The translations under genes were made by a program, and so were the position numbers. The notes beneath the pieces are model-generated. The model was not told where the DNA came from. It did no database searches and saw nothing but the letters and a program-made list of their open reading frames with translations. This document shows, piece after piece, positions 1,091 to 64,000 of a DNA stretch of 64,000 bases (the first letter of the stretch is position 1; every line of letters begins with the position of its first letter). This stretch comes from Isurus oxyrinchus (Eukaryota), in NCBI GenBank assembly GCA_026770705.1, contig JANJGN010000039.1, positions 4,588,001 through 4,652,000 on the forward strand, read 5' to 3'.

Positions 1091-1973
1091 CAAACTTTGT
1101 CATGCTTGTGATCCTCAGGAGCAACAGATGTGGTCTGTCGAAATGTGTAACTCAGTACCTGGTGGCCATGGCTGTGGCTGACGAAAGGTCGTTATTCCTG
1201 ATGTGATAATAAGGCACATTCCATTCTTGTTTAAGGAACAGTTTTACTTCTGGAACTCCATCCACGTGTGTAATATCCATACCATCTTGCTTTAAGCAGC
1301 CACAGACTGTCCTGTCTGTTTCACCGTCACTTTCACCTTTGGGGGATTTGTGGCCATTTGTTCCCTGAGGCTGAAAACTGAATATTGCAGTGAGAAAATA
1401 GCCACTGTGCTTCAGGGAAAATTGATTGTGCTGAGCTGTTCAAATAACATTTTCTGTTATTTTATGATAACAGATCCATATTGGCTGATGAACGGCCCCT
1501 GATTTCTGTGATTGTGCATGGAATAACCACGAATCTCTGTTCTGGGTAGCAATTGAGTTCCATTGTGTTTTCCATTTACCATGATTCTGCTGCTTAGTGT
1601 TTTCATAGGTAAGCAGATTTTAATGAAAGGCAGAGAACACAGGAGATTCCGGGCTCACAGAAGTGGGATAATCCCGGCGATCCATAGAGTGAGAGCAGAC
1701 GGAAATCTATGCATTTTCTGTCTGTTATCTCAGCCAATTTCTTCCTGTTTTGTTCAATGTCAATTGTTTATTCTATTTGGAGACTGATGTGGAATTTGGG
1801 CTATAAGTCGATGTATCTGTATCGTTTTGTTCAGGAAATAGGCTTCATGCTGCAGCTCCTGATTTGCTGCACAAACACTGGGATTTATGCAGTGACCGGG
1901 CTAAGTTCACATAGTATTTAAGAATGTGCTGCAACATCTCTTCACCCGAATTTCTTCAACATATTAAACAATA
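1091..1973 (+). pseudogene. GPR139/GPR142-like GPCR pseudogene, exon 2 (exon 1 lies left of the window)
   Basis: Acceptor ..ggcag at 1090, then NFVMLVILRSNRCGLSKCVTQYLVAMAVAD. Collinear with 14556-15433 through to GFMLQLLICCTNTGIYAVT. Lesions: frameshift near 1185, TAA at 1293-1295 (replaces Y in LYAATDC), DRF changed to GGF at 1341, TGA at 1500-1502, further frameshifts. Confidence 0.93.
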
Positions 1974-2460
1974 AAAAGAAAGAAATCACTGAGAGTTTCA
2001 GCAGATTCTCAGTTAATTGCAGAACCACAGCGGATGGAGCTGGAGAGATGGAGGGTGTGGAGGGGGGACAGGCATCCAGTCAGCCGTCCTCTCCCTTTTG
2101 CCAGTTCAATTGTTCATCGTGCAACAGCCTCACAATGATTGAAAGGAAAAATATCAGTAATAAGATATCTCTTCGCTCTTATTGGAGCTTTGGCATCATG
2201 GAGTTCCCTCACCCTGGTTGGACATAAATCCCCTGCCCTGGATGCATCCCCTCCAAATTGCTCTTCCATCTGTCCAGCATTCTCATTCGTCATGCTGATT
2301 CTAATGAAAATCCACAACATGGCAAAACTCCTCTTTCATTTGCCAGATTAACGCCCATCACAGAACCCCACAAATTCCAGCAGAAAGCAAGGGGCCTAGG
2401 GTCAAGGGAAATTCTCAGTTAATTTGGGAACTGAAAAGGAAAATTAGAGATATATTTATC

Positions 2461-2647
2461 TGAGAGGGAGAAAGAGAGAGAGAGAGAGAGAGAGAGATGA
2501 GAGATAAACAAACAAAGGGAGAGAGAGAGATATTCAGAGAGACAGGTCTGAACAGAGAGTAGCATATGGAGTGAGTTATAGAGACTGAGACAGATAAGCA
2601 GAGAGAGAATGAGAGTCCAAGACAGCGGGAGAGAGGCAGAGAGAGAC
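2461..2647. repeat. (GA)n-rich simple repeat
   Basis: Visible GA dinucleotide runs. Confidence 0.9.
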
Positions 2648-10968: not shown

Positions 10969-11084
10969 TTCCAGGTGCCTTTACATGTCATGGTCAGTCA
11001 AACCTCTATTCACAGCCTTCCATCCCTTAGCGAGCCACATACATCCGATCTACTAGGTTGTGAGACAAAAATTGTTGGAATGCA

Positions 11085-11315
11085 AGGCGTTAAATGAACC
11101 GGTTTGTTCAGTCCCTGTAATTAACTTCAATCTCCCTGGATCCTAATTGTGTCACAGGAGGGTTTCACTCTGCTATTTATACGGGGCTCATTTCAAAGTG
11201 CTGTCCCCTAATGTCAGGGGGACAGTCGCATTCAGCAGTCGCAAGGATCAACGATTCCTGAGAGGGGGAGAGAAAACATCAGAACCGCAGAATAATAGAT
11301 TGGAACGTGACAACA
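11085..11315 (+). promoter_or_regulatory. Proximal promoter/5' UTR of the intact GPCR gene
   Basis: TATA-like TATTTATA at 11174-11181. The block aligns with the upstream regions of paralogues at 48405-48600 and 63835-64000. Confidence 0.55.
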
Positions 11316-11490
11316 ATGAATCAGAATCTTAGAACAAAATCTTGGAATTTTACAAAAATGGACAGAAGTTTAACCTCGGGGCTGTACTATCTTTCTCAAG
11401 ATCGGATGTCATTAGCTGTTAGGATCGAGGGTATAATTTCGGTAATCCAAGTTGGTTACTTTCCCATCCTGACTCTTGTTGGTGTCAGCG
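11316..11490 (+). CDS. GPR139/GPR142-like GPCR, exon 1 (N-terminus and TM1)
   Basis: ATG 11316 (alternative ATG 11358); MNQNLRTKSWNFTKMDRSLTSGLYYLSQDRMSLAVRIEGIISVIQVGYFPILTLVGVS. Phase-1 donor G|GTAAGA at 11490/11491 joins exon 2 in frame. Confidence 0.88.
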
Positions 11491-11639
11491 GTAAGAACCT
11501 ATATGCAACAATCTGTTTTTTAAACCAGATTGACTGCATTACTGTTACTGTCTTTTACATTTCAGGAAGATGGAAGTCATTTGCTACTGTTCCCGTTTTA
11601 ATGATCTTTACCTATCCAGTCGCTCCACCCGCCTACCAC

Positions 11640-12060
11640 GCCATTATCTAAGTCTGAACCATAGTGTCTTCGACTCCCATGCTCCATTTGGCCCTGAGCT
11701 GATTTGTGAGCCCAGACTCTTTCTATCCTTAAGCCTGTCTTCCACCAGCTGTTTAGCCTCACCCACTATCCTCGCTGCATCAACACATCACCCGAATGAT
11801 CCCTCAGCTGTACATTTGGCAAAGCCAGACTCGGCTATTAAAATGTTAATCTGGCCAGCCAATTGCTTTTACAAACGTTCTTAAAATATACCCCATACAA
11901 AACTCTGATTTTTGTAAACTCACCCATGCCAAATCTCATTCCACCAATATCCCTGTGCTCAAGGGCCAAGATTGCTTCCAGGTCTTTCAAACCGTCAATT
12001 TCAAAATTCCCAATCCTGTGATTTGATCACAATTTAATCTCTCTTCTCCAATCAATCCCA
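11640..12060 (+). mobile_element. L2-type LINE 3' fragment in the intron
   Basis: ccaaatctcattccaccaatatccctgtgctc..ttcaaaattcccaatcctg resembles an L2 tail; a counterpart occurs at 49300-49600. Confidence 0.45.
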
Positions 12061-12699
12061 CGTCCAGAAACTCACATATGGTGCCCCATGTTGTGCAGGG
12101 ATTTTCAGCATGTTTGACGCATCCCTTTGAAACACTGGCTCTCCCTGTCCACCGGAAGCCTGTGTTAATCACTCTCAGCTAAATATTTGTTAAACAACAC
12201 GAGGCACCCTCTCCAGTTTAATTGAAACGGGCGAGACATCTCACTGTCAGCTGAAGGGCTTTCGACTGACTACTGTTATTGCAAAGTCCATTGAGGTGCT
12301 GTAGATTGTTTTCATGGTGCTGTGCTGTGAAGGGCTGCATAAATTGAGAGAGGAAAGAGGATTTATAGGCCCAACCTTGGAAGAGTATTTGGTGCAGTAA
12401 TTACAGTGCACCTGGACCTGTACCGTGACTAACAGAAAGGAGCGGAGTGAATAGGGAGTCAACCACCTGTTAACATTTCTTTGGGGGGGGGAGGAGGGTT
12501 GCACTGCCCGAAGCACCCCTGGATTGTCAGGAACACTTTACAAACCTACGCAGAAGTCATGTTCAGAGACGGATGTAACTCTGACACAACAGTAAAGAGT
12601 TACAGTCCCGTGTCACCTCCTTCAACAGGACCTGGGGCCACACACCAGGGTGAGGGAGCTGCTGTCTTTGGACATTAAGTTCACATGATCATTGAAACT

Positions 12700-13450
12700 T
12701 CTTTTGATTCGGAACCGTCCATGCAGGAGAATAGCTGGTGGTATATTAATTATCACCCAGTATTTTGTCTAACTATGTATTCGCTAGCTAACAGAGAACA
12801 TCTATGCTGGGTGCCACGTTTGTACTTTTGCTCCCTCAACAGGGAGAGGCAGTATAAGCGGTCCCAGGGCCTCCCAGGGCAGAGGGATTCCCGATGGCGT
12901 ACGTGATTCTGCCGTGTCCCCATTAGAATGGACAGAGATAAAGGCTCTTAAAGAATTCTAACTGCATTCACTTGCAATTGATGTACATTTATGCACAGTA
13001 CATCATGTTGGTGAATATCCAATATCCCGACTAGAGCCACAATACCTTCATTCTGAAGCACTCGGACGTTTCCAGCATCTCTGTAGCTCCATAGAGAACC
13101 ACGCGGTGGCTTTTCGGAGATGAAGGCTGCCCCATCGGTAAATGGCTCAAAAATCACAACTTCGCCATTCCCTACCTCCAACCAAGCAGGTGAACATCAC
13201 ACCTCAATACCAAGAGCAATGGAGTCGCACAGAGCATTTTGGATCACCCTGACATTGTGGGAAAGAAAAGCTTCTGATTACTGAGCCGTTGGGAGCGAAC
13301 CCTCCATTTCACCCTGGAGTGGTTGATCATGTTCACAGTGTTCTGCTTCATCCTTCATATAATCACCATCATAAGGAGACAGGCATTGTCACCAGGAATC
13401 CTGATACACTGCAGGAGAAGAGGAGATTGTGGTAAGATATATCCTGGATG
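12700..13450 (+). mobile_element. Degenerate Harbinger (HARBI1-like) transposase remnant in the intron
   Basis: Translates as LQLMYIYAQYIMLVNIQYPD*SHNTFILKHS..RWLFGDEGCPIGKWL. This corresponds to the DDE_Tnp_4 motifs QLVCD..YPGSSHDAFIL..WLLGDKGYPL..WL. Confidence 0.75.
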
Positions 13451-14555
13451 CTTTCGCCTTTGACAGGTTGTCTAGATGTGCCCACTAAGAATCCAGTTTG
13501 CACATGACTTCCTTTCTGAAGTTGTACACAATGTAAATTTTAGTGTTTGGACAATGGAAATCCAACACCAAGATCGAAGGACAGGGAGACCTTTGCTGAT
13601 AATAGGAACACTTCAAAATAACCTTTTATTAAGAGACATTTTTTGAAGATTTCAGGTACTAAAAGAGGCTGATAGGCTATACATGTTGGTACATTTCTTT
13701 AATACAGAGGCTCCACCACACTGTAGACTAAAAGCCAGATATTTAAAAACTCCATTTGTCTTCAATCACTGAGGAATGAACATTTCAGTCCTGCGATGTT
13801 TACAACCAGCACATTAAGCAAATTAAGGAATGAGCTGTTCCTGTTCTACACTCAAAATAATGTAATTATGCGCTGCATTTCTGCAAATTATCATTTTATG
13901 TGTGAGGGTGTATGAGTGTTTGTGGTGTACGTGATCGCTATATTTGTATTTCGTATTTTGTAAGAAACAGTCGTTTATCCTTTAATTTGAAATGATAATT
14001 CGCAAGAAAGCTCTCTTCGAAATTCTTAAAATAACATCAGTGGAGAGAGGAAACATTCCATCTGATAACTGCATAGCCTTCCTGTCAGGTGATATGTTGC
14101 GCAAAATAATAAATTACCCCGTTTCACTTCTTTCCCTTAACACAATCATCACCTCTGGCTGCTCTCACTCAAACGCATCTCCCCTCTCACACATGAGTTC
14201 CAGCATCAACCATGGGTACCACCCGTAATGGGCACCCTCGCCCGCCAATTCATGCGCCTCTATCATTGCTAAGTGCAACTATTATCCCCCGATTACTCCT
14301 TTCCTCCTTTGTCTCGCAAATATTCCCGTTCTCTCGCAAACTCCCATCTCCACCTTATTCCCACCTCCTTATTTTAACCATTCAATGTATGCTGCCTTCC
14401 ACGATATCACAGTCATATTTTATGCCTTGTTTCTGGACCGTTCATTTCAATGCACCGGAGGCTGCTGTAACACATCTCCATCGCATCTCAATCATACTAG
14501 CAACTTTGGTACCAGAGTGATATAGCGTTTTATTGTTTATTACCTTTCCTTGCAG

Positions 14556-15433
14556 TTAACCTGGTCACGATTGTGATACTCAGGCGCCGGAGCTGTGGCC
14601 TCTCCAATTGTGTTACCCGTTACCTGGTGGCCATGACAGTAGCTGATCTACTGGCCATTATCCTGGACCTGATATTGAGGCATATTCCAATTGTGTTTGA
14701 TAAGTATTTTTTTTTCCTGCGATCAATCCCAGTGTGTAATATCCATGCCGTCCTGCTTTATGCAGCCACTGACTGTTCTGTGTGGTTCACTGTCACTTTT
14801 ACCTTGGATCGATTTGTGGCCATTTGTTGCCCGAAGCTGAAAACTAAATATTGCAGTGAGAAAACGGCAGCTGTGATTCTGGGAACCGTCATTGCACTGA
14901 ACTGTTCAAAGAACATTTTCTGGTATTTTTTGCTTACAGGTCAGTACTGGATGGTAAACTTCCCCTCGTTTTGTGGTTACACAAATGAGGTTCTGTTGAA
15001 TCCTGTCTGGGTAACAATCGAGTTCACCCATCACATTCTAACACCATGTGTCCCATTTGTGCTGATCCTGCTCATCAATATTTTGACCATCGAGTATATT
15101 TTAGTGACCAGCAGGGCCCGCAAGAGACTCCGGCCTCACAGGAGTGGGCAAAACCCCAAAGACCCAGAGGTGGAGAATCGAAAGAAATCGATCATGTTAC
15201 TCTTTTATATTTCAGCCAATTTCATCCTTTTATGGGGAATGCTAATGTTTTTTTCCATATGGATCCGGATGTATGATTTAGGCTATTATTCCCTGTATCT
15301 AGATTTTTTTGTTATGGAATTGGGCTTCATGCTGCAGCTCCTTAGTTGCTGCACAAACACTTGGATTTATGCTGTGACACAGACTAAGTTCAGGAAGCAG
15401 TTGTGGAAAATGTTGAAATATCCTTTCACTTAA
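14556..15433 (+). CDS. GPR139/GPR142-like class A GPCR, exon 2 (end of TM1 to TM7/helix 8); spliced product 350 aa
   Basis: Polypyrimidine tract plus tgcag acceptor at 14555; open frame to TAA 15431-15433. Motifs: TM2 YLVAMTVADLL, ECL1 Cys (PVCN), TM3 DCSVWFTVTFTLDRFVAICC, TM5 TPCVPF, ICL3 DPEVENRKKS, TM7 SCCTNTWIY. It is not a one-to-one GPR139 orthologue, so no symbol is given. Confidence 0.93.
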
Positions 15434-18967: not shown

Positions 18968-19345
18968 GCAGCTGAATGAATTTTAAACAGTAAAAGTCCC
19001 ATTCACTTAGCACCAATCTGCTGAATGTATTTTAACCAGTACACACTTATCAACACTCTGCTGAATGTATTTTAAACAGCACTAAATCTCATTCACTTCT
19101 CAATGATCTGCTGAATGTATTTTCAGCAGCACTACATCTACTCACTTATCAACACTCTGTTGAATGTATTTTAAACAGCTCTAAATCCCATTCACTTATC
19201 GATACTCTGCTCAATTGATTTTAACCAGCAGTAAGCCCACTCACTTATCAAACACTCTGCTGAATATATATTACCCAGCACTAAATCCACTCAATTATCA
19301 ACACCCTGTATGAATGTATTCTAACCAGCACAAAATCACATTCCT
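18968..19345. repeat. Minisatellite, about 8 copies of a ~49-50 bp unit
   Basis: Unit about CTGCTGAATGTATTTTAAACAGCACTAAATCCCATTCACTTATCAACACT, directly visible. Confidence 0.92.
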
Positions 19346-19349
19346 GGTC

Positions 19350-22830: not shown

Positions 22831-22869
22831 ATTGTCGCAGCTAGCTGGCACACAGGCCTCAATGACCAG

Positions 22870-23003
22870 AATTAAACAGGTCATTATGATAACAGCACAA
22901 TCAATAAGGAGACCAGCCGCTGCCATTGCCATCATATAGTATGTAATGCATTTGCAGAGACCATGCTTTCCTCGCAAAAGATTCACAATTGCAACGCCAT
23001 TCA
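22870..23003 (-). pseudogene. Truncated GPR139-like exon 2 (TM1 end to TM2 only)
   Basis: Minus-strand acceptor ctctctcttacag, then (V)NGVAIVNLLRGKHGLCKCITYYMMAMAAAGLLID. Homology ends where Gypsy sequence begins. Confidence 0.85.
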
Positions 23004-31354: not shown

Positions 31355-31424
31355 CAGGTACGCCAATAGCCGCGAGAATACAATAGTAAATGTCGTCAAT
31401 CTGGTGAAGTCTCAGTTTTGCCAT
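31355..31424 (-). pseudogene. GPR139-like exon 1 (short N-terminus type), probably the partner of the truncated exon 2 at 23003
   Basis: ATG at 31424; MAKLRLHQIDDIYYCILAAIGVP plus phase-1 donor G|GTGAG. Splicing to 23003 gives GVPVNGVAIV in frame. TATA-like TATTTAAA upstream (31511-31518, minus strand). Too short for the ORF track. Confidence 0.85.
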
Positions 31425-33179: not shown

Positions 33180-33315
33180 NNNNNNNNNNNNNNNNNNNNN
33201 NNNNNNNNNNNNNNNNNNNNNNNNNNNNNNNNNNNNNNNNNNNNNNNNNNNNNNNNNNNNNNNNNNNNNNNNNNNNNNNNNNNNNNNNNNNNNNNNNNNN
33301 NNNNNNNNNNNNNNN
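33180..33315. other. Assembly gap (136 N)
   Basis: Run of N, flanked on the left by a GA-rich repeat. Confidence 1.
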
Positions 33316-33611
33316 TGTGAATAAATGCATGTGCTTCTTGGAAGAAATATCCTCTAAAGGACCATAGATAAAGGTGACAGTGAAGCAGAACGAGGTGATT
33401 TTTGTTGAAAATTTAGGAACCACAGTGCACTTAAACATCCGACTATTGTACATAAATAAAACTGGGAGTTCCTCCTGACAACTCCCTCCTAATATTGGAT
33501 CTGTGATAACGACAAGGAATTTGGTGTCTGCCATTCACTCCAAGTAGCAAAAAACACAATTTGAGGTTGAACACTTTCATCGCTTCAGGAACAAAAGCTC
33601 CCGAAATTTAC
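33316..33611 (-). pseudogene. Degenerate GPR139-like exon 2 running into the gap
   Basis: Acceptor ttttgtctgctccag; KFRELLFLKR*KCSTSNCVFCYLE*MADTKFLVVITDPIL..ITSFCFTVTFIYGPLEDISSKK is collinear with TM2-TM3 of the intact gene. Two in-frame stops; DRF lost. Confidence 0.8.
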
Positions 33612-38950: not shown

Positions 38951-38954
38951 GGAC

Positions 38955-43029: not shown

Positions 43030-46000
43030 GTGGATTGAGGGGAGTAGGTGGGGGTGGTGTCCTCCATACACACGCCTGTTTGCTGCATATTCGGATCAGG
43101 TAGTAAGGGATGTTGAGCCGATGTGCAATTGGCTTGCGTCCTGGCTTTTGGCTCAATTCGTGGATGTTTTCCATTCAGATCGGCAGGGTAGTTGGTAAGT
43201 TTGAAAGGTCATTTGAATCGGTTTGTGGATAATCCAGCAAGGCCGGGTATCGTGGTATTCATGAAAGGTCACAGGGCAATGTCAATGCTTTTTGGGTGTT
43301 AGCCTGGTTTGCTAATGAGGGATGTTACCTAACGGCGCGTGTGTTTCTTTCACTGGATGCTCTGTGTGTATTTGAGGTTTGTTTCCATAAGATTCGGGGC
43401 TAGAGAGGTCAATGAATAAATGCTGTCCAGGCTAGTTATATTAAGGTTGGTTGCGTCTTGGGAAATTAGTGCTTTTGGATGGGCGGGCCGAGTCAAGATT
43501 AGTGACCTATCTGTCAGTGTGGCCGGGACAGAGGAGCAGTCCTTTTTGTTGGGAAGTCAAGCAATTGGGTTTTGCATTTACTCAATGGGTTAGTTGGGTG
43601 GCCAAGTGTAGTCAGCTCCGTTCAAGTCAGTGAGTAGTCTGGCCTCAGGGGATATTTTGTTAAATGGGGGGTTAACTGAGACCTTTCAATCGGGTAATCA
43701 GGTCAGGTTAATTGGTTGTGTGTGCTTGGAAATGCAGCGAGGATGAGTGAAATCTTATTGGGTTTGTCTGGCATTAGTTAACTGGCCTGCAAAAAGGTCG
43801 GGTTGTTTTAAGCGGTTATTGGGGACAGTGGTGAATTTGGTCAGGTACAGCGATTTGGATCAACTGTGGAAGGGCGGGGTGCTTCGGGTGTTTCGTGAGG
43901 TGAATGGGGTCAGGTGGTATTTGGGAAGAGGGAGGTTATGTTGGCGGATTGTGGTGGTGCCTCGATCTGAGTTATTTTTCTCGTTGGGGCTCTAGTCACT
44001 TTGGGTCATGTCCATATTCAAGCCTGTTTGATAATAGCTCGTGAGTGATCGGGGTACTGTTTAAATTGGACTTGGGGGATAGTCACATCGATGCAGATTT
44101 CATCAGCTGGAGGGTGTATGCATTCTGCAGAGTCTATCGTCCAAAGAATTCGGGGAAATTGGATGGAGTCGGGTAGAGTCATTTTGTAGCTGGGTCTTGT
44201 GTGTTGAAAAGTCTGTTCAGCCGTGGGATAAATAGATCTGCTGGGGTGGAAGATCTTGTCAGCTCGCGGGTCGGAGAAAGTGGGAGGCACTTTGTTTTGC
44301 CCGTGTGTTTGTTCAGCAACTCGAGCTGTAGACAGGCCAAGCCATGGGAAAGCTCTGTTCGATCATCGGAGTAGTTGTGTCGAATTGGGGGATAGTCCAT
44401 TCAGGTCAGGGATAGTTGCTCCATTGTTTGGATGAGTAGATTGTTTCAGTCTTCAGGTTGGAGCCACAGCAATTTAGTTAGTGCTGAATGGCAGTCATGT
44501 CGTTTTGGGAGAATGGGTCAGCTTTTGAGTGTAGTCAGTTCAGTTCGCAGTGTGCAGTAATGTCAGGTTCGTTTGGGTGGAGGAGCTTCAATCGGCTAGC
44601 CTTAGGTTAGTTGTTTAATTGTGAGGAATGGTTGCCATTTTAGGATATTCAATTCAGCGGATAGTCATTTTGGGTAAACGTCTCAGCCTGATTTGTTGGA
44701 TTGTTAAGATAGTTCGACACGGAGTAGTCAGATGAGCATGCAGTGGTAGTCTTACCCAGAAGTTAATAGTGGTATCCAGTCAGGTCAGCAGTGTAATCTT
44801 GTCAGCTAAAGAAAATCATCACAGGTAGTGAGTAACCCAATCAGGTTGTTGGGTATTCGTGCCGGATTTGAGAGGTATGTGAATTGGATGGATAATTGGG
44901 GCGCATATGAGTCTTACTCGGATTGGCTCGGGGTTTCTCAGGTTCGGTCACGGTGTTAAAGTCCGGTACCTTGTTTGTTGCGGTTGAGGATGAGTAAGTA
45001 GGATTGGAGAAGGGCTTGATCTGCTCAACACCGTGTACAGTCGGTCAGGTCTCTGGGCAGTTTGGTCAGATGGCACGTGGTGATTAGTTCAGGGAGGTAG
45101 GAAGGTCGAGTCAATGTTTGTTACTTGAGGTGGGCTTGAAGCTGTCACGAGATGCAAAGGGGTACTCTGGTGAGGGCAGTGATGTAGACATCTCTGGTGC
45201 GTAGTGGGGACTTGTGAGGTGATTTTTGGTACGTGCTGGGGGTATTTTGGCCCAGGTGGTTAGTCGTGATCTGCACAGATTAGTCACTTGAGTTTGGGCG
45301 GTGGTGACAGTGGTGAGCAGTAGACTTTCCGGTTCAGAAGTTGGCCGGGCTCTGTTGGTGGTAAACAGTTTAATTGGGCTATTGGGTCGTGGGGGCAGCG
45401 GCATATTTGTGTAACATGTTCGGGTCAGTATGTAGCCCATGTAGTGGTATAGTTAGGTCCAGAGTGATAGTTTGGCCGTGCTGTAAAGGGGTGTAGCTGG
45501 AGTGAATAGGGCCGGGAGGTTGAAGAGTCAAGAGAGCTGGATTCAGAAATGTCACCAAGTTGGTTGGAGGTGTAGTCGGGTCAGGAAACAAGTATTCAGG
45601 TTGTGAGTTAGTCCTTCCTGGATGTCAGAAGGAAGAGCATCACTGCTTTAAGGCAGGCATTCCTGGAGTTAGCCATCTTGGTTCAATGAGAGATAGGTCA
45701 GAGGGTATTAATTTGGGCTGGGCTGTTGAAAACTTCGATGCATTGATTCATCAAGCTCAGCATTTAGTTTATTCGTGTTGTGGGTGTTTAACCGGTGAGG
45801 TTAAGGGTATCTGGTCAAGGTGGTGGAATCAACTTGGCCGGGTATGCATGTCAGATCCATTCGTTAATTTGGCACGTTTGTTTGCGGGATTTACTGGTGT
45901 GTTTCAGGTCAGGCCATAATGGTCATTGGCACGGGTATTCGGACCGAGTGGCGGGTAGTCACGCCTGGTCAGCGTGTCCATTGTCGAATTGTGATTTTAG

Positions 46001-46770
46001 GGGGTTGTGTCTGGTCAGCTTGGGATATAGTCAGGTCTAGTCGGAGACTGGTGTGGTCAGTTTCTTGCATGAGCTAGTCAACCAAGTGGTTTTTCAGGCT
46101 GGGTTTGCAAGTGGAGCAGAAAGATCGTGTCAGGTGTTGTCGCATCTGGTTGGTGCAGGGGAATGTCGAATTTGGTTTGCTGCTTGTTGGATCTTGTTGT
46201 TGTGGCGGCAGCCTGATAGGATCAGTAGGTAGTCGGATCAAATCAGAGGTTGTCGGACATTATCATTCCGAGATGTCATGAGATCACTTCGGGGGTGAGT
46301 CTAGTATGGAGTGCGATCAGGTGGGAAGGTGGAGAGGCATGTCTTGTTTACAGTCCTGTAGTTAGAGCGTGACAGGGGCCAGCTGGGTCTGCCAATTATG
46401 TGGGGCAATCTGTAACAATCATCAGTTCTGGATGTTATTGGCAGGTAGCTTGAGCGGTTCAGCTAATAATCGAGCCGGGTAGGTGCGGTGCTTTTTCGGA
46501 GTTGATCAAAGGTAGCCGTGTCTGGTCTGTGCAAGTGATAGTTGGAAAGTGTCAGCGTTTGGCAGAACGAGCTCGGGGGCTGTTGACAGACTCGGGGAAG
46601 TGGACTGTTTTGGGCTGTTTTTTTGGTTCAGGTCATATGGGCTGTCAGGTCCTTAATTTGGTTTAGCAACATTTCAGGTTTCATTGAGATCATTGGTTAG
46701 TCCGATTGGTTAATATTGGTGTCAGGTCGCGTCAGGTCAGAATCACTAGCCGGCACCGGCGTGATTCTCT
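43030..46770. other. Unclassified ~3.7 kb G/T-skewed element (copy 1)
   Basis: Strong G+T bias on the + strand, dense GTCAGG/GGTCAG motifs, no long or recognisable ORF. Confidence 0.6.
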
Positions 46771-48571
46771 GCTAAGTTAATTGTGAACAGAACTTGAAAT
46801 TCAACTTAAGGTGTTTTCTGTTCTTTTGTCACCTATACCAGGGTTGAAGGAATGATCAACATCTGGTTAAAAAAGAACAGCTGAAAGCAAATTTTACAGA
46901 CAAGATGGGGGCGTCAATGATTTATGTCTTCACGTCGATGGATTATAGAGTGCAGAATCAATCCATTGCTTGGATCATGCATGTGCTGGCTTCCAAAGAA
47001 ATATCCAGTTTTGGTTTCCGTGTCTGTTCTTTTCCCATAGCGGCTGCAAGTAGCTATTCAGTTCCCTATTGAAGCTGCTTTCAACGTGTCTGCAAGCAAT
47101 GCATTCCAGATAGTAACAACTCTCTACAATCATTTTCTTTTCATGGACTCTCTGATACTCTTGGCAATTAAATTACCTATCCTAGTTAGAGCGGGAAAAT
47201 GTTTACTTCCCGTTTGAAAATACCATGGAATATTCATCACCGCGATAACATTTCGCCTTTAACTTCTGCAGTAAAGGAATGAGCAAGCCCAGCTCCTCTA
47301 ACCTCTCGATTTCACTGACTGATCTACCATCTCTGGTACCAAAGCAATAACCCGCTCTGCACCCTCCTCATATAGTTTCTAATATATATATAGATAGACA
47401 TAAATTGGATATGGACAGAATTAATCAATTTTACTTTATTGAATTTCAGCACTCACTCCCAATTGTTCTGTAGTATTTGCATGGAATGATAAGGCAATAA
47501 CACATGTGCGCATTTTCCAATTCAAATCAAAGTATTCCAGCAGCTTCAACACGGTGTGTACGTCAGCCCAGTCTTGACTTGTTCCTCATTTCAAATCGTT
47601 GCTTTCAGTTTACATTGACGCTCCTCATTTTCCACTCAATGCAATGCTTTGCACTGCTCTGCATTAAATTGCATTAGCCGTGTGTCTCTCCAATGCATCA
47701 ACCTGCCTTTATACTCATGCTTTGTGTTTCTAACTGAACTTCTTGCTGTTTACTTTTCTGATTTTCTGTATTCTACAAAAGGTGAAAATAATGGCAGTTC
47801 AATGTTTTGGAAATGTCCCCCTGAAGAATATCAATGTATCCTCCACTCCAGCCTTAACAAGAGCATTAAATTAGTCCCCTCGGTATTTTGTACCTCAGCC
47901 AATGTCATACCAAAAATGCCAGTGCCCCTTTAATGCCCTGATTTCGGTTATCCTCACAGCTCCATTAAAAGGCACATTATCGCATGCCGCTTCACCATGT
48001 ATATACATAATAACCACATTATTCTCCTTAAAACTCTCCATTGTTTCACCAAACTTCACCAACTTTGCTAAACATGATGTTCGTCTGCTTAGTCATTCAT
48101 TAACCCTCTTTTTTTCTCCAAGTGAAGAATGTTGCAGTTTTTTACAATGTGTGGTAATATCTCCAGGATGGACTTTAGACTGACAGTCTTGAAGTTGGTG
48201 GGACCATTCATTTATTTACGTTTTAATGGGATTGGACATTGGTATATTCCAAATCTTGTGGCACCTCACCCATATCCATTGATGACTGAAAGATTCTGAC
48301 CAGAGTTCCCGTCATTTTCGCCATCCCTGCGCTCAATAATCCTCACAAACCCCATCATACTGTGCAAATGTTCCTATGCATTATGGTATAAAACTTCGTC
48401 TGGAAGAGGTTAACTGGGCTGTTCTGCTCAGTGACTGTTATTGGTTTCAGTCCCAGAGCTCCGAATTGCGCCGCTGGAGGTTTCCTTGCAGCTGTTAAAA
48501 AGGGAATCTTGTCTTTCTTATGTCCACTGTGTCAGCGAGGGCATCACCCCCGCCATAAAGAGGGAGCAACG
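43452..48571 (+). repeat. Segmental duplication, copy 1 (direct repeat of 58878-64000)
   Basis: Near-identical sequence at offset 15426-15429. Paired ORFs 43747/59173, 44018/59444, 45111/60537, 47649/63078. Confidence 0.98.
46940..48350 (-). mobile_element. Old CR1-type LINE fragment (duplicated at ~62368-63780)
   Basis: Reverse-complement CR1 tail (gcaatgcattccagatagtaacaactctct..cccgctctgcaccctc..ctctgcattaaattgcat). Confidence 0.6.
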
Positions 48572-48600
48572 GCTCTTGAGAGGCAGAGAGGATAAACCTG
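48405..48600 (+). promoter_or_regulatory. Paralogous GPCR promoter/5' UTR block
   Basis: Aligns with 11085-11280 (tcagt..ctgt.att...ttca.tc..tcc.aattg.g.c.c.ggagg.tttc; caacg.tc.tgagagg..gagag). Confidence 0.6.
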
Positions 48601-48615
48601 AATCTGAGGGCAATT

Positions 48616-48856
48616 ATGTTTCATGTCACAACAATGGCTCAGAATCTGAGGACAATATATTGGAATTTCACAACAATGGATCCGAATCTGAGCACAACAG
48701 TTTGGAATGTTCCAATCAGGACCAGTGGTTTATCCTTTTGGTTTGCCCTTATTTTCGCTGAAAATGAATGGTTCACATTAGAAATCCGGATCTCCTTCGC
48801 AGTTAAAGTGATTCAAATGATTTATTATCCAATCCCTGCTATTGTTGGTGTCCCTG
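48616..48856 (+). CDS. GPR139-like exon 1 with no matching + strand exon 2 in the window (orphan exon, or part of a gene extending beyond the window)
   Basis: MFHVTTMAQNLRTIYWNFTTMDPNLSTTVWNV..LEIRISFAVKVIQMIYYPIPAIVGVP plus phase-1 donor G|GTAAGT at 48856/48857. Homologous to 11316-11490. Confidence 0.8.
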
Positions 48857-55835: not shown

Positions 55836-56199
55836 CCCATACGTGTTTACAGTAACAGAAACTGACTGATAGAAAAAAATCCTTGCACAAATACACTGCA
55901 AACGGCAGCTTCACAAAGCGGTCAATTTTGTTAACAATATCAGGAAATGACCGACAGAAATAAAGTACAACACATATACACTGCTCCGGAGAGTAACAAA
56001 TAGTGAATAACCAAACACTCACCTACAGCTCCATTGACAATTGTTCCAAACTCACGTTCTTGCACATAAGGGTTAAATAAGCTGCTTTCGCACTTCAATC
56101 TGCGTCATCACGTTGAAACCACCAAATTCACGCCCCGCCGACACCGCGCACTTAATTCAAGAGCCGGTTCAGCATTTCCTAGCAATTCCCATCTTAAAA

Positions 56200-58860
56200 T
56201 AATGACAGCCTACCCACTCAGTTACTACAGTGACAGGTATCTGGACCTGTAAAATACTTAAAGTGTACCCACTCAATTTCTACAGTGACAGGCCTCTGTC
56301 CTCTAAAATCCTGACAGTCTACCCACTCAATTCCTATATTGATAGACCCCTGGCCCTGTAAAATACTGACAATCTACGCACTCAATTACTATAGGGGCAG
56401 ACGACTTGCCCTGTTAAATAACGACAACTTACCCAGGCAATCACTGCGGTGACAGACGCTTGGCCCTGTAAAGGACTGACAGTCCACCCACTCAATTATA
56501 ATATTGAAAGGCCATTGGTTCTGTAAAAAACTGATAGTCTACCCATTTAATTGCTACATGGACAGGCCCCTGGCCCTGTAAGTTACTGACAGTCTAAACA
56601 ATTTATGCATACAGAGTGAGGTCTCAGGCACTATGAATATTTTGACAATTCCCCTCTGCTACTTTTTAAAAAATTCGTTCATGGGATGTAAGCGTTCCTG
56701 GCTGGGCCACCATTTATTACCCAACCATAATTTCCATGTACAGATGGTATTTATGAGTCAGCCACATTTCTGTTGGCCTGGAGTCACATGTAGGTCAGAC
56801 CAGGAAAGAACAGCAGTCTCTTATTTAAAGGGCATTTGCAAACCAGATGAGTTTTTACAACACTTGGCGTTGGTTTGATGTTCATCATTAGAGAATTTAA
56901 TTATTCTTATTTTTTTGATTGACGATTTTTACTGAATTTAGCAACACACCGTCGGGAGAATCGAACCCGAGTCCCCAGAGAATTATTTTGTGTCTGTGGA
57001 TTACTCGTCCTACCCGAGTGACAGGCCGCATCTATGTCAACAAACTTCCATTTTCCCCGCTCCATTACTACAGTAACAGGCACCCAGCTCTGTTAACAAA
57101 TTGACAGTCTCCCCACGATATTACAATAGTGGCAGGCGCCCAGCCTTTAATATGTAGAGACAGACTGCACACTATATTACGATAGTGACAGGACCCGGGC
57201 TCTGTAAGCATTCTACATTCTACCAAACCAATTGCTATAAAGACAAAACCCGCAACTCGGGTAATGATACTGACAGCCTATGCCATTATGTGACTGTTGT
57301 GACAGGCCCCCAGCTCTATCATACTCTTGAAGTATACGCATTCTATTAGAATATTGATTGGAGCCCCCGCTCTGTAAACATGCTGACAGCCTGCACGATC
57401 AGTTGCTATGGTGGCAGGCCCCTGGCTCTTTAATAATAATGACAATCTACCCACTCTATTAATTTAATGACAGAACCTCCTGCTCTGTCAACACCCTGAC
57501 AGTCTACCCAAACTATTACTATGGAGATAGAACCACTAGCTCTGCAAATATGACAGCCTAGCCAGTCTAGCATTAGAGTTACAGGCCTCCAGCTCCTTAA
57601 TGATGCTGACAGATTTTCCACGCTATTACAATAGAGGCAGAGTCCCGGCCTCTGTAAACGTACTGACAGTCTCCCCATTCTAATACTATAGTGATAAAAC
57701 AGTGTGTGTAATGTTGCTGACAGAATCTCCACTATATTTCTGTTGTGACCGGCTGCCGAACGGTACATATACTGACAGCTCCAAAATCTAGTTACAGGCC
57801 CCTGGCTCTGTAAATATCCTGACAGTCTCCCCACTCTGTTTCTTTGGTGACAGGACCCTGGTTCTATAAAACACTGACAGTCTAGATTATCTATTATTGT
57901 ACTGGCTGGCCCCAGCTCTTCAAGCATGCTGACAGTCTAAACAATCTATTCATACACTGACTTGTCCCCGGGTCTTTAAACATACCGAGAATCTCTCCAG
58001 TCTATTACTACAGTGACAGACCCTTTTGTAAACATACTGATTGAATAGTATAATGTTCTTTAGTCATAGGTCGCCTGCTCTGTAAACAAGCAGGCAGAAT
58101 ACGACTGTATTCATATAGTGGCAGGCCTTCGGCTCTGTAAATCAATTGACAGTCTATGTATACTAATACTATAATGAAATGCTCTAGGCTTTGCAAACAT
58201 ACTGACAATCCCCCACCCTATTAGAATAGTGATAGGACCCGATTCAGTCAACATGCTGACAGTCTAAGTACCCTAATAATATACAGACAGCACCCCCCCC
58301 CCCACCCCCCACCCCCCGGCTCTGTCAAATAACTGAAAGTCTATGCACTGTATTACTAATAGTGAAAGTACCCTGGCTCTGTAAGCAAGCTGACAGTCTA
58401 TGCACTAGAATAATAAATTGGCAGCCGAATGGCTCTGTCAACGTGCTGGCATTCTATGCCCTATATTACTATAGTGACAGCCCCCCGGCTTTGTCAACAT
58501 TCTGACAGTCTATACCCTCTATTACTATAGTGACAGCCCACGGCTATGTCAACATATTGACAGACTATGAACACTATTACTATAGTGACAGCCCCATGGC
58601 TCTGTCAACATACGGGCAGTATAGGCACTCTAATAAGATACTGACAGACCCCGCCTCTGTCAACATTCTGACATTCTCTGCATTTTATTCTTATAGTGAC
58701 AGTCTCAGGGCTCTTTTGGATTACTGACACTCTACGCTCTCTCATACTAGAGTCACAGCACACGGTCTATTTCAACATGCTGACACCCTATGCACTCTAT
58801 TACTATTGTGACAGGCCCCCGGCTCTGTCAACATGCTGACAAGCAATGCACTGTATTGTG
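56200..58860. repeat. Degenerate ~55-bp tandem array, roughly 40 units, interrupted by a SINE
   Basis: Unit about CTGACAGTCTACCCACTCAATTACTATAGTGACAGGCCCCTGGCTCTGTAAACATA. Confidence 0.92.
56665..57025 (-). mobile_element. tRNA-derived SINE inserted in the tandem array
   Basis: Minus strand has a B-box-like GGTTCGATTC head (~56960-56972) and a LINE-like tail (..catcccatgaacgaatttttt) related to the LINE 3' end at ~31900-31965. Confidence 0.7.
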
Positions 58861-58877
58861 TAGGAATCACTGGGGTG

Positions 58878-61800
58878 TGCGTCTTGGGAAATTAGCCCTT
58901 TTGGATGGGCGGGCCGAGTCAAGATTAGTGACCTATCTGTCAGTGTGGCCGGGGCAGAGGAGCAGTCCTTTTTGTTGGGAAGTCAAGCAATTGGGTTTTG
59001 CATTTACTCAATGGGTTAGTTGGGTGGCCAAGTGTAGTCAGCTCCGTTCAAGTCAGTAAGTAGTCTGGCCTCAGAGGATATTTTGTTAAATAGGGGGTTA
59101 ACTGAGACCTTTCAATCGGGTCATCAGGTCAGGTTAATTGGTTGTGTGTGCTTGGAATTGCAGCGAGGATGAGTGAAATCTTATTGGGTTTGTTTGGCAG
59201 TAGTTAACTGGCCTGCAAAAAGGTCGGGTTGTTTTAAGCGGTTATTGGGCACAGTGGTGAATTTGGTCAGGTACAGCGATTTGGATCAACTGTGGAAGGT
59301 CGAGGTGCTTCGGGTGTTTCGTGAGGTGAATGGAGTCAGGTGGTATTTGGGAAGAGGGAGGTTATGTTGGTGGATTGTGGTGGTGCCTCGATCTGAGTTA
59401 TTTTTCTCGTTGGGGCTCTAGTCACTTTGGGTCATGTCCATATTCAAGCCTGTTTGATAATAGCTCGTGAGTGATCGGGGTACTGTTTAAATTGAACTTG
59501 GGGGAGAGTCACATCGATGCAGATTTCATCAGCTGGAGGGTGTATGCATTGTGCAGAGTCTATCGTCCAAAGAAGTCGGGGAAATTGGATGGAGTCGGGT
59601 AGAGTCATTTTGTAGCTGGGTCTTGTGTGTTGAAAAGTCTGTTCAGCCGTGGGATAAATAGATCTGCTGGGGTGGAAGATCTGATCAGCTTGTGGGTCGG
59701 GGGAAGTGGGAGGCACTTTGTTTTCCCCATGTGTTTGTTCAGCAACTCGAGCTGTAGACAGGCCAAGCCGCGGGAAAGCTCTGTTCGATCATCAGAGTAG
59801 TTGCGTCGAATTGGGGGATAGTCCATTCAGGTCAGGGATAGTTGCTTCATTGTTTGGATGAGTAGATTGTTTCGGTCTTCAGGTTGGAGCCACAGCAATT
59901 TAGTTAGTGCTGAATGGCAGTCATGTCGGTTTGGGAGAATGGGTCAGCTTTTCAGTGTAGTCAGTTCAGTTTGCAGTGTGCAGTAATGTCATGTTCGTTT
60001 AGGTGGACGAGCTTCGATCGGCTCGGCTTAGGTTAGTTGTTTAATTGTGAGGAATGGTTGCCATTTTAGGATATTCAATTCAGCGGATAGTCATTTCGGG
60101 TAAACGTCTCAGCCTGATTTGTTGGATCGTTAAGATAGTTCGACACGGAGTAGTCAGATGAGCATGCAGTGGTAGTCTGACCCAGCAGTTAATAGTGGTA
60201 TCCAGTCAGGTCAGCAGTGTAATCTTGTCAGCTAAAGAAAATCATCACAGGTGGTGAGTAACCCAATCAGGTTGTTGGGTATTCGCGCCGGATTTGAGAG
60301 GTATGTGAATTGGATGGATAATTGGGGCGCATATGAGTCTTACTCGGATTGGTTCGGGGTTTCTCAGGTTCGGTCATGGTGTTAAAGTCCGGTACCTTGT
60401 TTGCTGCGGTTGAGGATGAGTAAGTAGGATTGGAGAAGGGCTTCATCTGCTCAACACCATGGGCAGTCGGTCAGGTCTCTGGGCAGTTTGGTCAGATGGC
60501 ACGTGGTGATTAGTTCAGGGAGGTAGGAAGGTCGAGTCAATGTTTGTTACTTGAGGTGGACTTGAAGCTGTCAGGAGATGCAAAGGGGTACTCGGGTGAG
60601 GGCAGTGATGTAGACATCTCTGGTGCGTAGTGAGGACTTGTGAGGTGATTTTCGGTACGTGCTGGGGGTATTTTGGCCCAGCTGGTTAGTCGTGGTGTGC
60701 ACAGATTAGTCACTTGAGTTTGGGCGGTGGTGACAGTGGTGAGCGGTAGACTTTCCGGTTCAGAAGTTGGCCGGGCTCTGTTGGTGGTAAACAGTTTAAA
60801 TGGGCTATTGGGTCGTGTGGGCAGCGGCATATTTGTGAAACATGTTCGGGTCAGTATGTAGCCCATGTAGTGGTATAGCTAGGTCCAGAGTGATAGTTTG
60901 GCCGTGCTGTAAAGGGGTGTAGCTGGGGTGAATAGGGCCGGGAAGTTGAAGAGTCAAGAGAACTAGATTCAGAAATGTCACCAAGTTGGTTGGAGGTGTA
61001 GTCGGGTCAGGAAACAGGTAGTCAGGTTGTGAGTTAGTCCTTCCTGGATGTCAGAAGGAAGAGCATCACTGCTTTAAGGCAGGCATTCCTGGAGTTAGCC
61101 ATCTTGGTTCAATGAGAGATGGGTCAGAGGGTATTAATTTGGGCTGGGCTGGTGAAAAATTCGATGCATTTATTCATCAAGATCAGCATTTAGTTTATTC
61201 GTGTTGTGGGGGTTTAACCGGTTAGGTTAAGGGTATCTGGTCAAGGTGTTGGAATCAACTTGGCCGGGTTTGCATGTCAGATCCATTCGTTAATTTGGCA
61301 CGTTTGTTTGCGGGATTTACCGGTGTGTTTCAGGTCAGGCCATAATGGTCATTGGCACGGGTATTCGGACCGAGTGGCGGGTAGTCACGCCTGGTCAGCG
61401 TGTGCATTGTCGCATTGTGATTTTAGGGGGTTGTGTCTGGTCAGCTTGGGATATAGTCAGGTCTAGTCGGAGACTGGTGTGGTCAGTTCCTTGCGTGAGC
61501 TAGTCAACCAGGTGGTTATTCAGGCTGGGTTTGCAAGTGGAGCAGAAAGATCGTGTCAGGTGTTGTCGCATCTGGTTGGTGCAGAGGAATGTCGAATTTG
61601 GTTTGCTGCTTGTTGGATCTGGTTGTTGTGGCGGCAGCCTGATAGGATCAGTAGGTAGTCGGATCAAGTCAGAGGTTGTCGGACATTATCATTGCGAGAT
61701 GTAGTGAGATCGCTTCGGGGGTGAGTGTAGTATGGAGTGCAATAAGGTGGGAAGGTGGAGAGGCATGTCTTGTTTAGAATCGTGTAGTTAGAGCGTGACA

Positions 61801-64000
61801 GGGGTTAGTTGGGTCTGCCGATTATGTGGGGCAATCTGTAGCAATCATCAGATCTGGATGTTATTGGCAGGTAGTTTGAGCGGTTCAGCTAATAATCGAG
61901 CCGGGTAGGTGCGGTGCTTTTTCGGAGTTGATCAAAGGTAGCCGTGTCTGGTCTGTGCAAGTGATAGTTGGAAAGTGTCAGCGTTTGGCAGAACGAGCTC
62001 GGGGGCTGTTGACAGACTCGGGGAAGTGGACTGTTTTGGGCTGTTTTTTTTGGTTCAGGTCATATGGGCTGTCAGGTCCTTAACTTGGTTTAGCAACGTT
62101 TCAGGTTTCATTCAGATCATTGGTTAGTCCGGTTGGTTAATATTGGTGTCAGGTCGCGTCAGGTCAGAATCACTAGCCGGCACCGGCGTGATTCTCTGCT
62201 AAGTTAATTGTGAACAGAATTTGAAATTCAACTTAAGGTGTTTTCTGTTCTTTTGTCACCTATACCAGGGTTGAAGGAATGATCAACATCTGGTTAAAAA
62301 AGAACAGCTGAAAGCAAATTTTACAGACAAGATGGGGGCGTCAATGATTTATGTCTTCACGTCGATGGATTATAGAGTGCAGAATCAATCCATTGCTTGG
62401 ATCATGCATGTGCTGGCTTCCAAAGAAATATCCAGTTTTGGTTCCCGTGTCTGTTCTTTTCCCATAGCGGCTGCAAGTAGCTATTCAGTTCCCTATTGAA
62501 GCTGCTTTCAACGTGTCTGCAGGCAATGCATTCCAGATAGTAACAACTCTCTACAATCATTTTCTTTTCATGGACTCTCTGATACTCTTGACAATTAAAT
62601 TACCTATCCTAGTTAGAGCGAGAAAATGTTTACTTCCCGTTTGAAAAGACCATGGAATATTCATCACCGCGATAACATTTTGCCTTTAACTTCTGCAGTA
62701 AAGGAATGAGCAAGCCCAGCTCCTCTAACCTCTCGATTTCACTGATTGATCTACCATCTCTGGTACCAAAGCAATAACCCGCTCTGCACCCTCCTCATAT
62801 AGTTTGTAATATATATATATAGATAGACATAAATTGGATATGGACAGAATTAATCAATTTTACTTTATTGAATTTCAGCACTCACTCCCAATTGTTCTGT
62901 AGTATTTGCATGGAATGATAAGGCAATAACACATGTGCGCATTTTCCAATTCAAATCAAAGTATTCCAGCAGCTTCAACACGGTGTGTACGTCAGCCCAG
63001 TCTTGACTTGTTCCTCATTTCAAATCGTTGCTTTCAGTTTACATTGACGCTCCTCATTTTCCACTCAATGCAATGCTTTGCACTGCTCTGCATTAAATTG
63101 CATTAGCCGTGTGTCTCTCCAATGCATCAACCTGCCTTTATACTCATGCTTTGTGTTTCTAACTGAGCTTCTTGCTGTTTACTTTTCTGATTTTCTGTAT
63201 TCTACAAAAGGTGAAATTAATGGCAGTTCAATGTTTTGGAAATGTCCCCCTGAAGAATATCAATGTATCCTCCACTCCAGCCTTAACAAGAGCATTAAAT
63301 TAGTCCCCTCGTTATTTTGTACCTCAGCCACTGTCATACCAAAAATGCCAATGCCCCTTTAATGCCCTGATTTCGGTTATCCTCACAGCTCCATTAAAAG
63401 GCACATTATCGCATGCCGCTTCACCATGTATATACATAATAACCACATTATTCTCCTTTAAACTCTCCATTGTTTCACCAAACTTCACCAACTTTGCTAA
63501 ACATGATGTTCGTCTGCTTAGTCATTCATTAAGCCTCTTTTTTTCTCCAAGTGAAGAATGTTGCAGTTTTTTACAATGTGTGGTAATATCTCCAGGATGG
63601 ACTTTAGACTGACAATCTTGAAGTTGCTGGGACCATTCATTTATTTACGTTTTAATGGGATTGGACATTGGTATATTCCAAATCTTGTGGCACCTCACCC
63701 ATATCCATTGATGATTGAAAGATTCTGACCAGAGTTCCCATCATTTCCGCCATCCCTACGCTCAATAATCCTTTCAAACCCCATCATACTGTGCAAATGT
63801 TCCACTGCATTATGGTATAAAACTTCGTCTGGAAGGGGTTAACTGGGCTGGTCTGCTCAGTGACTGTTATTGGTTTCAGTCCCAGTGCTCCGAATTGCGC
63901 CGCTGGAGGTTTCCTTGCAGCTGTTAAAAAGGGAATCTTGTCTTTCTTATGTCCACTGTGTCAGCGAGGGCATCACCCCCGCCATAAAGAGGGAGCAACG
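58878..64000 (+). repeat. Segmental duplication, copy 2 (continues beyond the window; ends here inside the GPCR 5' UTR)
   Basis: The last base, 64000, corresponds to 48571, which is 45 nt before ATG 48616. Confidence 0.98.

Follow-up and report, generated by a model that had tools for sequence, protein, structure and literature searches.

A GPR139-like receptor gene of Isurus oxyrinchus belongs to an expanded elasmobranch family with divergent ligand pockets and a possible chemosensory role

A 64-kb stretch of Isurus oxyrinchus DNA, here called the window, carries a single class A GPCR gene that is intact (gene B, two exons, 350 amino acids) and five remnants of related genes, distributed over both strands. 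Gene B is a member of a GPR139-like family that has expanded in elasmobranchs, as established by its nesting in trees, the phase-1 intron within TM1 and a 14-residue repeat. Judged from sequence comparisons, this shark and ray family appears to be very large, fast-changing and, so far as literature searches show, undescribed. Its members combine a variable ligand pocket with conserved activation switches and intracellular loops, a pattern that would fit a repertoire reading many ligands, and we see an even chance that the family works as a combinatorial chemosensory repertoire.

Exon 1 of gene B (11316..11490, + strand) encodes the N-terminus and the first half of TM1, ending in phase 1 at a GTAAG donor at position 11491. 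The 3065-base GT..AG intron (11491..14555, +) lies in phase 1 inside TM1, and exon 2 (14556..15433, +) is intact from the rest of TM1 to helix 8, with no internal stop in the 350-residue product. The N-terminus carries 42-bp/14-residue repeat units with N-glycosylation motifs; this glycosylated repeat is also found in relatives, in which the stalk is 0–5 units long. The sole Pfam match of gene B is 7tm_1, located in exon 2 (49.9 bits against a curated cutoff of 30.5), and the structure model of exon 2 (pLDDT 87.3) matched class A structures at TM-scores of about 0.6–0.7. Residues N1.50, D2.50, C3.25, D/E-R3.50, P5.50, F6.44, W6.48, N7.49 and Y7.53 are kept, and P6.50 and P7.50 are replaced. 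Together, the Pfam score, the seven-helix model and the activation switches identify gene B as a class A (rhodopsin-like) receptor. Its identity to shark relatives does not exceed 73%, most close matches lying at 65–73%; pieces of exon 2 and of the intron match contigs of related organisms at about 97% and 90–99%, respectively, these being a mixture of orthologues and paralogues.

The original prediction of one intact gene, at least five paralogous remnants and a further duplicated upstream region was borne out by copies A, C, D, E and F, in addition to B, and by the duplicate G. Copy A (1091..1949, +) is a pseudogene with a complete exon 2 that shares 72.9% nucleotide identity with gene B; it has four stops and several frameshifts and has lost the DR motif of TM3, but still has the phase-1 acceptor. 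Its exon 1 would sit upstream of the window. Copy C (19353..19541, +) retains only ECL3, TM7 and helix 8 (profile score 25–27 bits); a 50-bp minisatellite (19004..19337, strand not assigned) immediately precedes it, at the site where the 5′ portion of exon 2 is absent. Copy D comprises a 23-codon exon 1 of the short-N-terminus subfamily (31355..31424, −; tblastn E 9e-5) with a phase-1 donor, and an exon 2 remnant covering TM1–TM2 (22858..23003, −; profile 33–34 bits) with a phase-1 acceptor, in which homology stops at TM2 and D2.50 is lost. From strand, order and subfamily, these two pieces would form a single copy with an 8.35-kb intron. Copy E (33334..33611, −; tblastn E 3.6e-8, 32.7 bits) is a degenerate 5′ part of exon 2, from TM1 to TM3/ICL2, with about 31% amino-acid identity, in-frame stops and a phase-1 acceptor, and ends at an assembly N gap (33180–33315). 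Copy F (48616..48856, +) is an open exon 1 of 80 codons containing 2.6 copies of the 42-bp repeat and a phase-1 donor; no exon 2 of this copy was found within the 64-kb window.

The segment upstream of copy F (43452..48571, +), of which the last ∼170 bases belong to the conserved upstream region and 5′ UTR, served as template for a recent duplication. Its duplicate, copy G (58878..64000, +), is 97.15% identical, with 143 mismatches and 2 gaps over 5123 bases. The end of the window falls just before exon 1 of copy G would begin. Arrays of a 55–56-bp minisatellite (56195..58857, strand not assigned) end beside the left breakpoint of this duplication. In gene B, the region before exon 1 (11081..11315, +) likewise comprises a conserved upstream region and 5′ UTR, with a TATA-like element at 11173; these ∼235 bases align with those of copy F, and upstream region plus exon 1 score 172, shuffled sequences reaching at most 34. 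The upstream region of copy D aligned with neither. The ‘duplicated promoter’ of the original prediction is confirmed as a duplicate of the upstream sequence of F, its label as a promoter being putative, from position and conservation. The 50-bp and 55–56-bp satellites bear no relation to each other (scores 19–27, shuffles up to 31). Satellite-type matches upstream of B and F are weak (40 and 43 against 32), none of B, D and F has a tandem array immediately before it, and the idea of a satellite before every gene was not upheld.

Remnants were detected with tblastn and with two family profiles, the second broader than the first. Real copies score 25–575 bits, compared with no tblastn match in the reversed window and no signal above 5 bits with the first profile or above 3 bits with the broader one. 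Signals at 25663–25740 (4–6 bits), 39361–39462 and 9134–9364 were dropped as near noise or as arising from mis-annotated N-termini. None of the 23 other window ORFs tested gave a Pfam match, and no neighbouring genes were found in the window. Wherever a junction could be read (the acceptor of A, donor and acceptor of B and D, the acceptor of E and the donor of F), it was in phase 1 at the identical codon (7/7). The shared phase-1 intron therefore stands as predicted in phase, but not in place, as it lies inside TM1, at the codon just before N1.50, rather than after this helix.

Database comparison indicates that the family reaches far beyond these copies. Of 1,897 candidates, 1,358 match at E≤0.001, and at E≤1e-30 the matches form 107 clusters at 50% identity; of the 21 clusters looked up, 20 come from sharks, skate or rays and one is unnamed. 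Among the 120 matches listed, 117 are named shark proteins and 53 come from one species, giving at least 53 for one shark. Ten of 14 whale-shark entries share one record length, taken as one chromosome, and intact members were found across sharks, skate and rays. In contigs of three related organisms, the conserved helices show a tens-fold pile-up relative to the intron. Copy number as given here is based on other species and on these contigs. In quick trees, gene B is nested among shark and ray paralogues, its subfamily having a support of 100. A lineage-restricted birth-and-death family with many copies, as had been proposed, is supported by these data. The family corresponds to the shark and ray proteins that RefSeq and GenBank name ‘probable G-protein coupled receptor 139’, ‘neuropeptides capa receptor-like’ and ‘vasopressin V2 receptor-like’. 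These names are automatic; no publication was found that treats their bearers as a family, and literature searches, including the supplements of several papers, yielded no description of this expansion.

Variability of the ligand pocket was assessed at 22 positions fixed from GPR139 papers, relative to the other positions in the extracellular halves of the helices. Across 54 representatives of the expanded family, entropy was 2.67 in the pocket versus 2.01 elsewhere (p=0.0007), in agreement with the expectation of diversified ligand pockets. The conserved clade (84 members) gave 0.69 versus 1.11 (p=0.009). Within the subfamily of gene B (116 sequences from several shark orders) the pocket was not more variable than its surroundings (0.84 versus 0.79, p=0.38), so that the majority of recent duplicates may have a core ligand in common, with differences confined to the rim. 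Same-species paralogues are 0.82–0.95 identical in the intracellular loops, 0.54–0.60 in ECL2 and 0.48–0.59 in ECL3, and in deep subfamilies, whose helices are about 47% identical, every switch residue is retained. Such divergence of the pocket speaks for different ligands, not for a sensory site; immune or peptide receptor families would look alike.

GPR139 and GPR142 are class A orphans activated by L-Trp and L-Phe (PMC5430874, PMC8807744), and in GPR139 the charged part of these ligands is held by R6x51 and N7x38 (PMC5430874). Gene B retains three of the five residues of this site (the aromatic at 3x33, F in GPR139 and Y here, H5x43 and W6x48), with R6x51 changed to L and N7x38 to F; E3x32 is also replaced. 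An aromatic amino-acid ligand, suggested in the original prediction, is rendered less likely by the absence of R6x51 and N7x38. The pocket of the gene B subfamily is charged (D2.57, R2.61, H3.28, E5.39, H5.42 and E7.36) and differs from the L-Trp/L-Phe site. GPR139 is the best match of gene B by sequence among solved structures and 115 of the 120 matches listed bear the name ‘probable/putative GPCR 139’, as would be expected if gene B were orthologous, in sharks, to GPR139 or GPR142 and surrounded by pseudogene copies of itself. Structurally, the alignment to GPR139 has 18% identity and ranks 18th of the best 50 shown, and the structure search does not tell GPR139 from other peptide receptors. 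Orthology is very improbable: the score of 32.9 bits between gene B and human GPR139 lies below those of three non-orthologues (a coelacanth paralogue, 70; a salamander receptor, 53; an amphioxus receptor, 93), R6x51 and N7x38 are missing, and C3.25, the TM3 cysteine present in gene B and all 116 close relatives, is lacking in GPR139. GPR139 and GPR142 are also single-copy, unlike this multi-copy family. As surmised, gene B is most probably not the neuromodulatory GPR139 orthologue.

The description ‘GPR139/GPR142-like’ holds in that these are the nearest mammalian relatives, but a third, conserved paralogue is nearer by score (102 versus 33 bits). This closest non-expanded relative (coelacanth XP_005988539; 102.5 bits, 32%) is probably among the receptors called ‘GPR210A/B’ (PMC6504862) and ‘Orphan 139-like’ (PMC5207463). 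It has about one entry per species, from sharks, where it is apparently single-copy, to teleosts, amphibians, squamates and turtles, with no mammal or bird entries among the 120 matches listed. Its pocket is invariant at E2.61, R3.28, D3.29, Q5.42, R6.51 and Q6.55, none of which is present in gene B. A search with the amphioxus receptor gave 12 proteins, with no true GPR139 or GPR142 among them, and the quick trees lack such sequences. In these trees the clade of the conserved paralogue has a support of 97–99 with gene B outside; a sister relation between the two was not rejected (p-AU 0.183), and neither the position of the salamander receptor nor the root of the expanded family was fixed. 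In orthologues of this paralogue taken from contigs, homology is interrupted at the TM1 codon at which gene B has its intron, which suggests that the intron is shared. The nematode Srw profile is found on 16–69% of members of related Atlas clusters. Srw chemoreceptors probably arose from the peptide-receptor group to which the present family goes back. That group is of the MIP/FMRFamide type (PMC8514136).

Copies arise by local duplication, G being a 97% replicate of the F segment, and are broken down by truncations, frameshifts and stops, as in A, C, D and E. Pocket and extracellular loops diverge on a constant set of activation switches and intracellular loops. On the chemosensory reading, each subfamily may have its own ligand, a polar small molecule or a short peptide that reaches the animal from its surroundings, and the subfamilies would share a single pathway, probably phospholipase C via Gq/Go, as used by GPR139/GPR142 and by TRPC2-positive microvillous neurons. 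A sensory role for the family, gene B included, is what we infer from these sequence patterns. Nematode Srw chemoreceptors and mammalian MRGPR and FPR are lineage-specific, ligand-diverse expansions of peptide-type receptors, independent of this family. In vertebrate chemoreceptor families, too, the pocket is variable between paralogues and conserved among orthologues, and OR, TAAR, V1R/ORA, V2R/OlfC, T1R and T2R genes show the same clustered birth-and-death with many pseudogenes (PMC10869828, PMC10116579, PMC6368271), although the present family differs from them in ancestry. The main texts of these surveys gave no mention of GPR139 and the family is not counted there. Many pseudogenes are described as a hallmark of olfactory families (PMC10116579), and cartilaginous fishes have small olfactory repertoires of 20–62 genes yet many sensory neurons (PMC10869828). 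Against this, catshark olfactory neurons are reported to be all TRPC2/Go-positive and to express V2Rs already (PMC10116579). Of 20 sequencing runs found to contain the sequence, one (share 0.05) is recorded as RNA; this run, a coral metatranscriptome (an environmental sample), gave four short contigs on the conserved helices, which may be DNA or a paralogue and are left out of the argument. A more tentative, rather doubtful step is that the family constitutes a seventh vertebrate chemosensory GPCR family, confined to sharks and rays, derived from the GPR139/neuropeptide-receptor group and outnumbering their known smell and taste receptors together.

The same signature of clusters, pseudogenes, variable pocket and loops and constant intracellular face is predicted if the receptors serve immune or barrier surveillance in the manner of formyl-peptide and MRGPR receptors, sensing peptides of microbes or of damaged tissue on leukocytes, skin or gut cells. 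The peptide-receptor ancestry would agree with this, and the repeated, glycosylated N-terminal stalk suits an exposed surface. This role is unlikely, as the sequences show no tie to chemoattractant receptors and the pocket of the subfamily is conserved over shark orders, slower than an arms race would suggest. Lower still in probability is a diversified GPR139/GPR142 role with ligands from within the body, such as neuropeptides, metabolites or cues of reproduction or osmotic state, sensed in brain, gut, gonad or rectal gland. The nearest relatives that have been characterised act in brain and gut/islet, where they respond to amino acids and peptides, and expression outside the nose is reported for several catshark OR and V2R genes (PMC11979771). 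Against this role, the death rate of copies in the window is high, and the conserved paralogue that sharks retain as a single copy, its pocket invariant, would suffice for the ancestral function. Endogenous ligands are also not known to form any set as large as the >100 clusters at 50% identity.

Slightly less probable again is that most copies are incidental products of a region prone to duplication, few of the genes being functional and a wide repertoire not being under selection. Of the six copies whose coding sequence can be read, only one is intact; minisatellites lie at two breakpoints and the pocket is unchanged within the gene B subfamily. Batoid tandem duplication scales with genome size (10.1101/2025.06.08.657570), so that some of the copies may be neutral. 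It is the deep subfamilies, retaining every switch residue while the pocket changes selectively, and the intact members in sharks, skate and rays that argue against this.

Cartilaginous fishes are reported to have few GPCRs overall (PMC8455134) and the smallest vertebrate chemoreceptor repertoires, with a mean of 43.8 olfactory genes (PMC10869828), which has been explained as a trade of discrimination for sensitivity. Those counts would no longer stand if a family as large as this one has been hidden behind the automatic name ‘probable GPR139’. The conserved paralogue, single-copy and invariant in its pocket, offers a target of its own in the search for ligands. Were the expanded family immune instead, it would still be an undescribed vertebrate receptor repertoire; if it is indeed a seventh chemosensory family, it would explain very large olfactory organs alongside the small number of recognised olfactory receptor genes.

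Family searches of the window recovered an intact two-exon receptor gene (gene B) and five further copies, and nothing comparable to these was found in the reversed window used as a control. Gene B lies on the forward strand, with exon 1 (11316-11490) and exon 2 (14556-15433) separated by a 3065-base GT..AG intron, and encodes 350 residues with no internal stops; it is a class A GPCR, and the structure predicted from exon 2 has a pLDDT of 87.3. Copy A has a complete exon 2, 72.9% identical to gene B, with four stops and several frameshifts, and copy C is a remnant spanning TM7 to helix 8. On the minus strand, copy D comprises exon 1 (31424-31355) and a truncated exon 2 from 23003, and the degenerate copy E is cut off by an N gap; copy F is an exon 1 only, in open reading frame. 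The original prediction had this inventory right and erred only in placing the intron after TM1: each of the seven readable junctions interrupts, in phase 1, the codon preceding N1.50, which lies inside TM1. The receptor cluster is real. As a sample it is ordinary; the family it comes from is extraordinary.

The segment at 58878-64000 (G) is a 97.15% copy of 43452-48571, upstream of copy F, and terminates just short of exon 1. Copy F (48616-48856) has an intact donor, and no exon 2 follows before the next copy, 15.4 kb on. Either a duplication that broke within the intron left it orphaned, or it is an alternative first exon able to splice to exon 2 of G, which would exchange the receptor's most variable region. 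Two unrelated minisatellites sit at rearrangement points: the one of 50 bp (19004-19337) where copy C is truncated at its 5' end, and the one of 55-56 bp (56195-58857) at the duplication's left end. A strong GC skew runs through most of the duplicated segment (43452-47500 and 58878-62900), which by eye looks like a degraded LINE in minus-strand orientation; the two ORFs tested from it had no Pfam match. Other decayed transposon-like stretches were seen by eye at 3700-6500, 7100-9800 and 15900-16300, including one DNA-transposon-like and one LTR-retroelement-like remnant, and the ORFs tested from these also had no Pfam match.

The DNA is of shark type: of the 120 highest-ranked relatives listed for the long ORF, 117 are named shark proteins. 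A word-indexed protein search returned 1,897 candidates, 1,358 of them at E<=0.001; by hand count the 120 matches listed include 53 from horn shark, 25 from sevengill, 14 from whale shark (10 on one record) and 10 from zebra shark, several entries possibly being isoforms of a single locus. Sevengill models outscore the full identity possible for one receptor, and therefore likely hold duplicated receptor segments from merged tandem copies. A bamboo-shark model in which a coiled-coil/RING-type (TRIM-like) N-terminus precedes a family receptor has probably arisen by the fusing of adjacent genes during annotation. An exhaustive search gave 107 clusters (50% identity) at E<=1e-30, 154 at 1e-10 and 743 at 0.001. 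Of 21 of the 107 whose organisms were looked up, 20 are from sharks, skate, stingray or devil ray; among clusters looked up, the first non-elasmobranch one appeared at E 3e-24 and none was from a chimaera. Contigs of three related organisms aligned to gene B gave summed depths on TM2-TM4 and TM7 of 26,000-51,000 (two runs) and 450-760 (third), and in the intron of 100-1,800 and 11-48, respectively, summed depth not being equivalent to copy number; one intron stretch was covered by several distinct contigs at ~91% and ~99%. This pile-up is read as suggesting many paralogues, some recent.

The best solved-structure match of gene B is human GPR139, at only 32.9 bits. A coelacanth receptor scored 102.5 bits against gene B and only 70 bits against human GPR139. 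It leads a conserved clade of 145 matches in which each species contributes roughly one entry. Mammals and birds are absent from the 120 matches listed, and three sharks are present, at 60-66%, so that sharks possess both this conserved paralogue and the expanded family. The conserved GPR139-like orphan occurs in sharks, bony fishes, amphibians, squamates and turtles. Its pocket is nearly invariant and charged (E2.61, R3.28, D3.29, Q5.42, R6.51, Q6.55, D7.36), with S/C replacing W6.48. That two of its entries bear the name of TMEM183A isoforms suggests this gene as a neighbour.

Three quick trees (69, 49 and 30 rows, all subsets of full-length rows), which do not include true GPR139 and GPR142, place gene B within a shark subfamily of full support and outside the conserved clade; the two larger trees do so with 16 and 6 rows. 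The conserved clade grouped with amphioxus at support 95-98; uniting all vertebrate rows was not rejected (p-AU 0.183), and the expanded family may therefore be a sister to this clade that has evolved fast. A salamander receptor with a long branch and N2.50, K6.51 and N7.39 was placed near the base of the expanded family, without firm support, and may be a survivor of it in bony vertebrates.

According to PMC5430874 and PMC8807744, GPR139 requires F3x33, H5x43, W6x48 and N7x38, and its R6x51 is modelled as binding the amino-acid backbone. Gene B retains 3x33, H5x43 and W6x48 in kind but has F at 7x38 and L at 6x51; judged by these residues, GPR139-style L-Trp/L-Phe binding is unlikely, and it may bind other polar ligands. 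Twenty-three pocket positions were preset from the same papers, 22 being left after removal of five gappy columns, and were compared with other extracellular-half helix positions in rows with >=88% core coverage. Entropy was 2.67 in the pocket versus 2.01 in the control for expanded-family representatives (54/119 rows retained; p=0.0007), 0.69 versus 1.11 for the conserved clade (84/120; p=0.009), and 0.84 versus 0.79 for the close subfamily of gene B (116/120; p=0.38). At 53 positions near-invariant in the conserved clade, the expanded family averages 3.04 bits over the nine in the pocket and 1.02 over the 44 others (p=8e-6). Same-species paralogues are 0.82-0.95 identical in the intracellular loops and 0.40-0.60 in ECL2, ECL3 and the proximal N-terminus, a contrast not seen in the conserved clade. 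A 14-residue unit bearing glycosylation motifs is repeated 0-5 times in the N-terminus of the close subfamily (83/120 rows readable); the 42-bp coding repeat at 11316-11360 and 48600-48710 encodes this glycosylated stalk.

A search of the openly accessible literature found no paper on the shark and ray expansion. It is not described in the accessible portions of PMC11979771, PMC10620051, PMC8455134, PMC6504862, PMC5207463, PMC10115646, PMC6368271, PMC10116579, PMC10869828, PMC8514136 and 10.1101/2025.06.08.657570, or of the supplements of PMC13188829. In the parts available, PMC6504862 names GPR210A/B in bony fishes, with no shark included, and PMC5207463 has an 'Orphan 139-like' entry.

The sequence establishes that copies duplicate and decay, and that the pocket and outer surface vary while the inner surface stays constant. 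The expanded family bears the sequence signature of ligand diversification and very probably constitutes a ligand-diverse repertoire, in which many ligands would feed one pathway. That it is used in sensing, as originally proposed, has about even chances and ranks ahead of the other readings; it is favoured by how large the family is, by its many pseudogenes, by the contrast between paralogues and orthologues and by the gap in the repertoires known from sharks. Against it count the conserved pocket within the close subfamily, the V2Rs already expressed in the nose (PMC10116579) and the scaling of duplication with genome size (10.1101/2025.06.08.657570). A repertoire for immune surveillance is rather improbable, receptors for internal signalling are unlikely, and neutral amplification is the least likely of these.

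The expanded family is catalogued under a misleading name, mostly 'probable GPR139', and is apparently undescribed. The full claim, with the odds somewhat against it, would be that this is a seventh vertebrate chemosensory GPCR family, amplified only in sharks and rays beyond their known smell and taste receptors together.
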